Shown: positions 3,538-44,019 of the stretch, piece after piece
Layout: the number at the start of each line of letters is the position of its first letter
How positions within the stretch are numbered: position 1 is the first letter of the stretch
Virus record (IMG/VR): IMGVR_UViG_3300025154_000049
Coordinates: 1-64,000 of that record
DNA length: 64,000 nt
Reading direction: 5' to 3' (one strand)
Source: a virus
Notes under the pieces: generated by a model
Seen by the model: only the letters and a program-made list of their open reading frames with translations
Database searches by the model: none
What the model was told of the DNA's origin: nothing
Program-made: the position numbers and the translations under genes

Positions 3538-3900
3538 CTAACCCCTAACTGTTTCTACAACTGAAAATTTTTCAGTAAATCCTTTTATCTTGAAATAGAT
3601 AAAAGCTTTATAAGCATTATTATCTATGTCTGTAACAACCCTAGACATATTCATATCTAACAATACTCTATCATCCCAAAAAGTTATATTATTTACTATA
3701 TCCTGAAAAAGTATTATAGCATTTGTATCATCTATAACATCAAAAAGATAATCATCCCTCTCAAATCCAAAATCTGGAAGATACAGTACTTCCGTCTTTC
3801 TGGTTTTTATTATACTACTAATACTCTGAATTACAGAATCTAAATCTATAACTTCAGGTCTTTTGTAGGAATCATTAGCATTTATATCAGAATACAACAT
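3538..3900 (-). CDS. gp25: Baseplate gp25-like sheath initiator
   Basis: YSDIN..SVIQSISSIIKTRKTEVLYLPDFG..WDDRV pattern. Confidence 0.85.
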   Translation of the reverse strand: MLYSDINANDSYKRPEVIDLDSVIQSISSIIKTRKTEVLYLPDFGFERDDYLFDVIDDTNAIILFQDIVNNITFWDDRVLLDMNMSRVVTDIDNNAYKAFIYFKIKGFTEKFSVVETVRG

Positions 3901-33579: not shown

Positions 33580-34003
33580 TATTTTCTCTAGCCCTTCGTT
33601 TCATTTCATTAACAAATTCTCTTATTCGGGCATCCTGTGGAAGATTTCCTCCTTTAGCAGGAGGACTATCTTGAAAATAAGCTCTTATTATCTCATTTTT
33701 TGTTGAAATATCATACAGTTTAGTCAAAAAACCAAGACTAGCGTACTTAGACTTAACCACGCTATTCAATAGCTGTATTAAATCTTTAGGTTCTAACGCA
33801 AAGATAAATTCATCGGAACACAAATACTTCTCTATCTTTCTAATTATCCTGTTACATTTTCTAATACATCCCATTTCGTTTGAAACAAGACTCATAAACT
33901 TGTCAGGTGTCAAATTCCTCTTAATACGAGTTTTATTCTCAACTAAAGATTTTACCTCAGAAGTGATATCTATTATTTTATCTTTATTGTCGTTAGAATC
34001 CAT
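33557..34003 (-). CDS. Probable terminase small subunit
   Basis: Helical 148-aa protein overlapping the large terminase start. Confidence 0.5.
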   Translation of the reverse strand: MDSNDNKDKIIDITSEVKSLVENKTRIKRNLTPDKFMSLVSNEMGCIRKCNRIIRKIEKYLCSDEFIFALEPKDLIQLLNSVVKSKYASLGFLTKLYDISTKNEIIRAYFQDSPPAKGGNLPQDARIREFVNEMKRRARENNDLPSED

Positions 34004-39971: not shown

Positions 39972-40000
39972 TTGACAAAACATTAACAATATGTTACAAT
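39972..40000 (+). promoter_or_regulatory. Sigma70/sigmaA-type promoter
   Basis: TTGACA-17-TACAAT with TG extension. Confidence 0.75.
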
Positions 40001-40032: not shown

Positions 40033-40689
40033 ATGATTTATTTTTTAGACAATAATCCAGAATTAGCAGGAATCTATTTGTCGGATAAACATCTATCTTG
40101 TCAACTGGGAAGTGCTTGTACTGTAATTTGTACGGTATTGGAAAATTACACCGATTCTTCTATGCCTCAAAAAGTAATAAATAAAAGTAACGCTGTAGTT
40201 AGTTGGGCTAGTATCTCTAAATCTAATTTTGAATGGTTAGTAGAATACGCTCAATCCGTGCAACGTCATTTTTATACCATTTATGGTAAATATCATAATA
40301 CTACTATAGATTTATCTTCCATTATAGTTCCTGAATTACCCAAAGGAGGACTTATGGAATTTCCTCAGTTACTTCCAGATAGGTATAAAATGGAAGGAAA
40401 TTCTGTAGAAGCCTATAGAAATTATTATGTTATGGAAAAAGCTAAAATATCCAATTATAGACAAAAAGCTCCAGATTGGTTTTTAAATAAATTAGACGAG
40501 ACCCAGAGAACTCTATACATGGATTATTTTGAACACATAGGTACCAATTTAAGAATATACAGGGATAGTGATACAGGTATTGTTATACAAAAAAAATTAG
40601 AGGATAGTTGGGTATCCTTAGGTAACTTAACTTTAGAAGAGCAAATACTGATTGAGAGGATACTGGATAATGGGTTTAGGGAAGGATAG
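40033..40689 (+). CDS. Pyrimidine-dimer DNA glycosylase / endonuclease V family protein
   Basis: MIYFLDNNP..A..L.DKH, W..S..NF.WL, FPQ..PD.YK..SVEAYRNYY..EK..W. Confidence 0.75.
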   Translation: MIYFLDNNPELAGIYLSDKHLSCQLGSACTVICTVLENYTDSSMPQKVINKSNAVVSWASISKSNFEWLVEYAQSVQRHFYTIYGKYHNTTIDLSSIIVPELPKGGLMEFPQLLPDRYKMEGNSVEAYRNYYVMEKAKISNYRQKAPDWFLNKLDETQRTLYMDYFEHIGTNLRIYRDSDTGIVIQKKLEDSWVSLGNLTLEEQILIERILDNGFREG

Positions 40690-40855
40690 CCTAGAGGAGC
40701 TGGTTTTTGAACTTTACCAGTCTGGGGAAAATAGGGAAGAGTTATTGAAGTCTTTAATCTGTACTTTTATTAATCTAGCAAATATTGATAAAGATTCAGA
40801 AGTACAATTAACAGCAAAAAGTTTATTAGAAACAGCAAAAAATTTAATAATATAA
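40670..40855 (+). CDS. Small hypothetical protein
   Basis: Overlaps the end of the glycosylase gene; GAGG upstream of ATG 40670. Confidence 0.45.
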   Translation: MGLGKDSLEELVFELYQSGENREELLKSLICTFINLANIDKDSEVQLTAKSLLETAKNLII

Positions 40856-40865
40856 GAAATTGTAT

Positions 40866-40945
40866 TTTATATTATAATTGAATACTATATACAATTTACT
40901 ATGAAGTTTTTCTGAGCAGGTTTCCTCCTTTACTGCTCAGTTTTT
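40866..40945 (+). ncRNA. Candidate late small RNA with an anti-Shine-Dalgarno loop
   Basis: Late motif TTTATATTATA 40866-40876 with no ORF after it, then CTGAGCAG-GTTTCCTCCTTTA-CTGCTCAG-TTTTT. Confidence 0.5.
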
Positions 40946-40967
40946 ATTTGTTATATTTTGAATATAG

Positions 40968-40993
40968 AAATAGAGCCTCATAAAGGCTCTATA
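40968..40993 (-). terminator. Intrinsic terminator
   Basis: ATAGAGCCT..AGGCTCTAT-TT after the holin-like gene. Confidence 0.7.
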
Positions 40994-41493: not shown

Positions 41494-41548
41494 ATTTAAT
41501 TTCCTCGTAAAATACCATTCCCTAAATATAATATAAATCAACCATAAT

Positions 41549-43926: not shown

Positions 43927-44019
43927 TCTAATTCTCCTACTCTTTTCTACTACGTATGTATAATTATATTAATTTTTGGCAACAAGCCTTCATATATAAT
44001 ATAAATTAAAAAATTTGTA

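Follow-up and report, generated by a model that had tools for sequence, protein, structure and literature searches.

A hairpin in the genome of an uncultured phage is a real, selected RNA structure: it exposes an anti-Shine-Dalgarno (anti-SD) loop and is associated with a core motif of the phage's late promoters. Our working interpretation, a tentative one, is that the element forms an RNA module conserved in a T4-like clade of uncultured phages, one that occurs both as a free late RNA and as the 3′ untranslated region (UTR) of an early mRNA and that pairs with SD sites. The evidence comes from the fold of the hairpin, its retention among relatives on changing stems, and the reuse of the promoter core across the genome.

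Genomic setting of the element

The window analyzed here is the first 64 kb of a linear, 158.5-kb IMG/VR virus record (genome G000, ~83% complete), which has a G+C content of 31% and carries nearly all of its genes on the minus strand. Its tail sheath is distantly T4-like, and INPHARED phage records gave no DNA-level match to the genome, near or distant. The hairpin lies in a 182-nt gap between convergent genes, behind an operon that forms a small plus-strand island (Table 1). The TTGACA-17-TAnAAT layout upstream of this operon is kept in all relatives, and with so conserved a host-type promoter the operon is presumably transcribed early, by the host RNA polymerase. Family searches with the second gene of the operon gave no match.

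Table 1. Features in and around the gap that holds the hairpin (positions of the window)
Feature	Position	Strand	Remarks
Plus-strand island	40033–40689 (218-aa gene) and small gene ending at 40855	+	
Sigma-A-like (host-type) promoter of the plus-strand operon	39972–40000	+	TTGACA, 17 nt, TG-TACAAT; 11/12 matches in promoter scan
218-aa protein gene	40033–40689	+	phrog_624; distant relative of pyrimidine-dimer glycosylases (T4 endonuclease V/Pyr_excise) with an extra C-terminal part
61-aa gene, last in the operon	40670–40855	+	ORF 40652–40855; ATG at 40670 is the start used by relatives
Late (virion-gene) promoter core, candidate small-RNA promoter	40866–40876	+	exact 11-mer TTTATATTATA
Leader	40877–40911	+	semiconserved TATACA box; U-rich run before the stem
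Stem, 5′ arm	40912–40919	+	CTGAGCAG
Loop, 13 nt	40920–40932	+	DNA GTTTCCTCCTTTA, RNA GUUUCCUCCUUUA; core UUUCCUCCUUU is the anti-SD motif
Stem, 3′ arm	40933–40940	+	CTGCTCAG
U-run completing the intrinsic terminator	40941–40949	+	TTTTTATTT
Terminator of the convergent late gene	40970–40992	−	control: stem covaries, loop not conserved
Convergent gene, 167 aa	41038–41541	−	own late-promoter motif at 41537 (−); synteny in relatives

The protein encoded by the first gene of the operon gave no direct match in Pfam or PDB by sequence searches, nor in PDB with Foldseek. A profile search with it returned 4,501 matches, and all 10 of the remote ones that we sampled belong to Pfam Pyr_excise; the top structural match by VIA-align is T4 endonuclease V (1enj), at a weak Z score of 5.6. 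The initial annotation had called this operon a glycosylase operon, a label that is plausible given the remote Pyr_excise homologs and that the weak structural match leaves unproven. About 70 extra C-terminal residues, modeled with low confidence as three strands and a helix, are absent from typical Pyr_excise relatives of 150 to 170 aa, and GTDB genomes contain no relatives of the gene.

A terminator hairpin with an exposed anti-SD loop

At 40912 to 40940 on the plus strand, the sequence is exactly as the initial annotation had described it, with an 8-bp stem, a 13-nt loop and a U-run about 35 nt behind the promoter motif. The fold of this hairpin is more stable than that of shuffled controls (z = −3.1), and the loop is ~0.99 unpaired in the predicted 67-nt RNA. 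The loop is a perfect complement of AAAGGAGGAAA and contains CCUCCUUU, 8 nt that it has in common with the tail of canonical 16S rRNA.

In most respects this is an intrinsic terminator: its G+C-containing stem of 8 bp is followed by TTTTTATTT and stands 57 nt past the last plus-strand stop codon, and the same holds in relatives. The earlier caveat that the hairpin also terminates the upstream operon is correct, and the anti-SD loop is therefore also the 3′ end of the early mRNA. Intrinsic terminator loops are typically 3 to 8 nt long and of any sequence; here, the loop is 13 to 15 nt long and invariant. The terminator scan tool that we used is limited to loops of 3 to 8 nt, and the 40912-to-40940 hairpin is not in its list. 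A genome-wide survey of hairpins followed by T-runs bore out the earlier remark that the loop is unlike those of other terminators: only this one has a CCTCC loop, and the other convincing terminators have loops of 3 to 9 nt.

A covariance model of the element (R1) finds a single copy in G000 and likewise a single copy in G001, a complete relative. A second, weak match of the model in G000 (33633 to 33705, E = 0.44) is a minus-strand UCCUCC..AGGAGGA hairpin around AAAGGAGGAAA, situated within a 148-aa gene and ~70 nt before a 631-aa gene. A scan of Rfam up to an E value of 10 yielded only chance matches (snoZ163 and Chlorobi-1, at E values of 5.8 to 8.6). Scans of IMG/VR for the exact hairpin and for the pattern core-N26-52-TTTCCTCCTTT recovered two close relatives as the only true matches; five further matches were rejected, as none has the hairpin and all resemble pairings of the core with antisense SDs by chance.

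Conservation of the loop on changing stems

Relatives were found through homologs of the 218-aa protein (53 to 96% identity) on contigs with the same synteny, namely, a plus-strand gene of 211 to 226 aa, a plus-strand gene of 61 to 66 aa, a convergent minus-strand gene of 139 to 151 aa and a tail fiber; L032 and L036, whose contigs have no comparable gap, were left out. The hairpin always stands directly 3′ of the two-gene operon and is kept in six lineages on five unrelated stems (Table 2), with runs of T5 to T8 behind the stem in all canonical relatives. Aligned hairpins show compensatory changes in seven of the eight stem pairs, with 95 to 96% of cells paired; none of 500 shuffles reached the stem covariation score, and slid controls stayed near zero. 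All stem pairs are Watson-Crick, without a single G-U.

Table 2. The hairpin in six lineages and its distance from the late-promoter core
Lineage	5′ stem	Loop	3′ stem	Run behind the stem	Core to stem (nt)
Window, L002, L003	CUGAGCAG	GUUUCCUCCUUUA	CUGCUCAG	U5	35 (window)
L007	CCGAGCAG	GUUUUCCUCCUUUA	CUGCUCGG	U5	21
L020	CGGGCAG	AUUUCCUCCUUUA	CUGCCCG	A, then U7	26
L012	GACGUAG	CUUUUUCCUCCUUUU	CUACGUC	U5	32
L014, L015	GUGCGUG	AUUUCCUCCUUUA	CACGCAC	U6	no core
L034	UGACGUGG	AUUUAUCUUCUUUA	CCACGUCA	U7	33

The initial annotation had named a lack of loop conservation as a ground for refuting its proposal, and the relatives do not bear this out: despite the different stems, five lineages share an unchanged loop core, UUUCCUCCUUU, and the sixth, the distant L034, has UCUUCUUU, whose two C-to-U changes would still allow G-U pairing to a GGAG-type tract. 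Among close genomes, conservation extends to the entire 83-nt unit, which is identical to that of L002 at 83 of 83 positions and to that of L003 at 82 of 83, whereas the flanking genes of the same genomes are 88 to 91% identical and the adjacent intergenic stretch is 74 to 84% identical. The leader accounts for part of this, as it is fully identical in L002 and differs at a single position in L003, whereas the flanks have diverged by ~11%, which argues that it, too, is constrained on short time scales. On these comparative grounds, the stem, loop, promoter core and leader are under selection, the stem, loop and promoter-core motif jointly. By the same comparison, the element is old within the clade yet dispensable, since three lineages (L008, L016 and L033) are without it and have no gap at all.

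Three relatives (L013, L018 and L019) carry a variant form, in which a weak 5-bp hairpin with the loop UAUCUCCUUU is followed by a separate terminator; in L013, the CUCCUUU loop of this weaker hairpin stands just past the stop codon, apart from the real terminator. The operon terminator of L009 (positions 3851 to 3871), and likewise that of L010 and L011, pairs UCCUCCC with GGGAGGA in its stem, and a UUCUUCUUUA tract lies just upstream of the terminator, such that the pyrimidine motif persists in a closed context.

The terminator of the convergent gene, on the opposite strand, shows a compensatory change in L002 (GAGCC/GGCTC to GTGCC/GGCAC), and in deeper relatives its stem and loop are wholly different, the usual way in which terminators evolve.

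The late-promoter core

The 11-mer TTTATATTATA occurs 22 times on the minus strand and twice on the plus strand of the 158.5-kb genome, where ~1.3 copies per strand would be expected by chance for an AT-only 11-mer (our estimate from base composition). Its sites lie 25 to 70 nt upstream of the SD and ATG of the major head, sheath, tube, baseplate and tail-fiber genes, and the same core precedes minus-strand late genes in every relative. Many sites come directly behind a terminator hairpin, a position that fits a promoter and not an RNA processing site. At 125525 (−), outside the window, the core stands ahead of 14 clustered tRNA genes and a tmRNA-like call by ARAGORN (123791 to 125525), so late motifs would appear to drive noncoding RNA genes in this genome as well.

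The site at 40866 was initially described as an exact late promoter. Its 11-nt core is indeed exact and is present upstream of the stem in five of the six lineages (Table 2); what is missing is the downstream extension of the fuller consensus, TTTATATTATA-nn-TAG-r, which is found at 17 of the 22 minus-strand sites. The site continues instead as atTGAA and consists of the core only, like the site at 44005 (−) before a tail-fiber gene. It thus has neither nn-TAG-r nor a gene behind it; five gene-proximal sites also lack the TAG. The description of the site as having no ORF behind it holds, in that no plus-strand ORF of at least 30 aa follows, only ATG-AAG-TTT-TTC-TGA. Sequences flanking the retained core are unrelated between lineages, and because the core is retained exactly in four further lineages amid such diverged flanks, chance is ruled out as the source of the site at 40866.

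Judging by where the TAG-r box lies at the other sites, transcription presumably starts at ~40880 to 40882. The RNAs predicted for the different lineages are 54 to 67 nt long, with the loop fully unpaired. L014 and L015 have no promoter core and a leader homologous to that of the window (AATACT..TATACA..AATTT); as they keep the hairpin all the same, the 3′-UTR role may be the older one.

Candidate targets and hosts

Translation initiation regions in G000 are of the AAGGAG or GGAG type, with a mean duplex energy with the loop of −7.2 kcal/mol, and none of them contains a full 11-nt match to the loop. First genes behind late motifs and those behind sigma-A-like promoters do not differ in this respect (P = 0.22), and no selectivity between early and late phage genes was found. 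In the mRNA of the operon itself, no site complementary to the loop is conserved; the best sites differ between lineages, and the SDs of its 5′ UTR pair with the loop over only 5 to 7 nt (−9 to −11 kcal/mol; less in the window). Overall, no preferred target of the loop was found in phage genes. Within the 218-aa gene, at 40341 to 40356 (+), AAAGGAGGACTTATG combines a strong SD with an ATG in frame (codon 108) and has 9-nt complementarity to the loop of the hairpin; it is kept in L002 and missing from deeper relatives, so the match is probably a coincidence.

With respect to the host, GGAG or AGGA stands upstream of 44 to 53% of phage genes. Phages throughout the clade use GGAG-type SDs, and their hosts should accordingly carry a canonical anti-SD. 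The idea that loop variants track variant host anti-SDs was rejected, since L034, with its UCUUCUUU loop, still uses GGAG-type SDs.

One contig bears on the Patescibacteria. In L012 (positions 320 to 1465; JGI 3300045700), phage genes are joined to a segment of higher G+C content that carries the 3′ end of rpsF followed by ssb and rpsR; the segment shares 78% DNA identity with a Paceibacterota genome, and identity reaches 94% for its bS18 protein. Phage genes and segment meet in an A-rich stretch at the contig end, where a phage P4_cII-like gene is truncated, and for these reasons the contig may just as well be an assembly chimera as a true link to Patescibacteria. Two Patescibacteria genomes that we examined have almost no GGAG and show AAUAA- or UAAAA-type words upstream of genes. 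Among the 16S rRNA 3′ tails of Patescibacteria genomes (G003 and G007 to G061; L117 and L128 to L155), 8 of the 16 that are readable have no CCUCC behind GGAUCA (for instance, UUUAUUUUUUU, CUUCUUAUCU and UCUCUUUUC), which suggests, from sequence, that part of the sampled class has altered or lost SD/anti-SD pairing. Several Patescibacteria genomes have the canonical tail GGAUCACCUCCUUUCU, which shares CCUCCUUU with the loop.

Comparison with known regulatory RNAs

The element belongs to none of the families with which we compared it: it has no Rfam match, is a single hairpin and has a different loop. Small RNAs of the DapZ/MicL type derive from 3′ UTRs, have their own promoter and share the terminator of the mRNA, with the seed usually 5′ of that terminator. 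The phage element is similarly placed at an mRNA 3′ end whose terminator it shares, and it has a candidate promoter motif (missing in one lineage) and a conserved loop, but its putative seed is the terminator loop itself.

Exposed anti-SD loops and regulatory terminator loops have precedents (PMC4615179, PMC2790875, PMC11979758). The cuckoo RNAs of Alphaproteobacteria (CcsR/ar14; PMC4615179) likewise combine a conserved anti-SD-like loop with freely varying stems. They are, however, cellular RNAs with two to four adjacent hairpins and the loop sequence CCUCCUCCC, whereas the phage element has one hairpin, which doubles as the terminator, displays UUUCCUCCUUU and stands behind a late-promoter motif; it gave no match to their family (Rfam RF02344) at E values up to 10. 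The unpaired C-rich motifs of RsaE, RNAIII and other Rsa RNAs of Bacillota (PMC2790875, PMC6158497) pair with SDs and block initiation, much as proposed for the phage RNA. Those RNAs are larger, multidomain and cellular and use UCCC motifs, whereas the phage RNA is minimal, has a loop that matches the full extended anti-SD and is unrelated to them by sequence or by Rfam family.

As in the icaR mRNA (PMC3868564), an anti-SD motif lies in a 3′ UTR, although the best intramolecular sites vary by lineage, unlike an icaR-type pairing of 3′ and 5′ UTRs. In StxS, the short PR′-tR′ transcript of Stx phages (PMC7547250), a phage late promoter is also followed immediately by a terminator to give a short regulatory RNA; StxS, however, is an antitermination by-product made before late genes and has a different loop motif, whereas the genes around the phage element are convergent and nothing lies downstream of it on the plus strand. 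An intrinsic terminator loop is the functional determinant in the control of fepA by SdsR, RseX and ArrS (PMC11979758), but those E. coli RNAs require Hfq and RNase E, carry no anti-SD sequence and probably do not act by base pairing. Finally, T4 itself acts on SD regions (GGAG) through RegB and RegA and so reprograms translation (PMC3014915), the purpose that the initial annotation had proposed for the RNA. RegB and RegA are proteins, RegB an early one, whereas here the agent would be an RNA, with no early-versus-late difference in SDs.

Alternative explanations

The element might have no role beyond that of a 3′ UTR in the early operon mRNA, its anti-SD loop acting in cis or, from the mRNA, in trans, with the 11-mer unused as a promoter. 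The constant position of the hairpin directly behind the two genes suits such a role, as do the L014 and L015 elements, which retain hairpin and homologous leader without the core, the L013 arrangement in which the CUCCUUU loop is detached from the real terminator, and the precedent of the icaR 3′ UTR (PMC3868564). We regard it as unlikely, given that the exact 11-mer persists in five of six lineages with diverged flanks and that the operon mRNA offers no conserved complementary site, its 5′-UTR SDs giving only 5 to 7 nt. An improbable reading has the loop recognized by a protein: by mimicking the 16S 3′ tail, it would serve as a decoy for a factor that is ribosome associated or directed at the SD/anti-SD, such as a nuclease or a ribosomal protein. 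The two C-to-U changes in the L034 loop suit G-U-tolerant pairing better than sequence-specific protein contacts, and a phage-encoded bS18, looked for as a partner, is absent from both G000 and G001; the idea draws on the 8 nt (CCUCCUUU) that the loop has in common with canonical 16S tails (GGAUCACCUCCUUUCU in Patescibacteria) and on the enzymatic attack of T4-type phages on SD sites via RegB (PMC3014915).

It is quite improbable that the hairpin is an ordinary intrinsic terminator whose loop is constrained for another reason, for instance as a site at the DNA level or as a hairpin in single-stranded DNA, and whose promoter core is a by-product. Termination of the operon does account for the stem and the U-run, and with stem pairs that are all Watson-Crick, covariation reads the same for an RNA hairpin and a DNA hairpin; termination needs no invariant loop of 13 to 15 nt, however, the other good terminators have short, variable loops, the U-run is on one strand only and the whole 83-nt unit is constrained. 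On the minus strand, read-through from the convergent gene would display the loop UAAAGGAGGAAAC, a perfect strong SD that could act as a ribosome site, a CsrA-type GGA site or the ribosome-binding site of a tiny ORF, and hairpins with GGA in the loop are classic CsrA sites. We consider a functional minus-strand RNA highly improbable, since the convergent gene has its own terminator upstream, at 40992 to 40970, and both the U-run and the promoter core belong to the plus strand. An ORF behind the SD-like loop was rejected as well: no lineage has a start codon at a usable distance, none is kept across lineages and no ORF is conserved.

A model for the element

In the model that we favor, the module would run from the late-promoter core through a short leader rich in U to an intrinsic terminator, with UUUCCUCCUUU exposed in its unusually large loop of 13 to 15 nt. 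Early in infection, the two-gene mRNA made from the host-type promoter would end in the hairpin, so that the loop would first be present as part of its 3′ UTR; a free RNA of 55 to 67 nt is most likely made in addition, from the promoter core, at the late stage. The loop most likely pairs with purine-rich SD regions of the AAAGGAGG type and hinders binding of the 30S subunit. That the RNA is transcribed on its own, that it acts by base pairing and that SD regions are its targets are inferences; base pairing is suggested by the identity, exposure and invariance of the loop and by the G-U-compatible changes in L034. Blocking of strong-SD host or early mRNAs, as put forward in the initial annotation, may be the outcome. 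An anti-SD RNA made at that stage would encounter AAGGAG-type sites of the phage itself as well.

A bolder version, which we think doubtful, is that a lytic phage makes a free copy of the anti-SD tail from a strong late promoter and with it masks extended SDs throughout the cell or decoys a factor aimed at the 16S tail or the SD. If this were true, translation would be reprogrammed late in infection by RNA only.

To our knowledge, very few regulatory RNAs of lytic phages are understood, and this one is short, easily synthesized and mutated, and clear in its seed sequence. If the RNA does pair with ribosome-binding sites, its signature in metagenomes would be an invariant CCUCC loop on a freely varying stem, with a U-run and a phage promoter, and the phage would tune or stop translation with a mimic of the 16S tail and not with a protein, such as RegB or RegA of T4.
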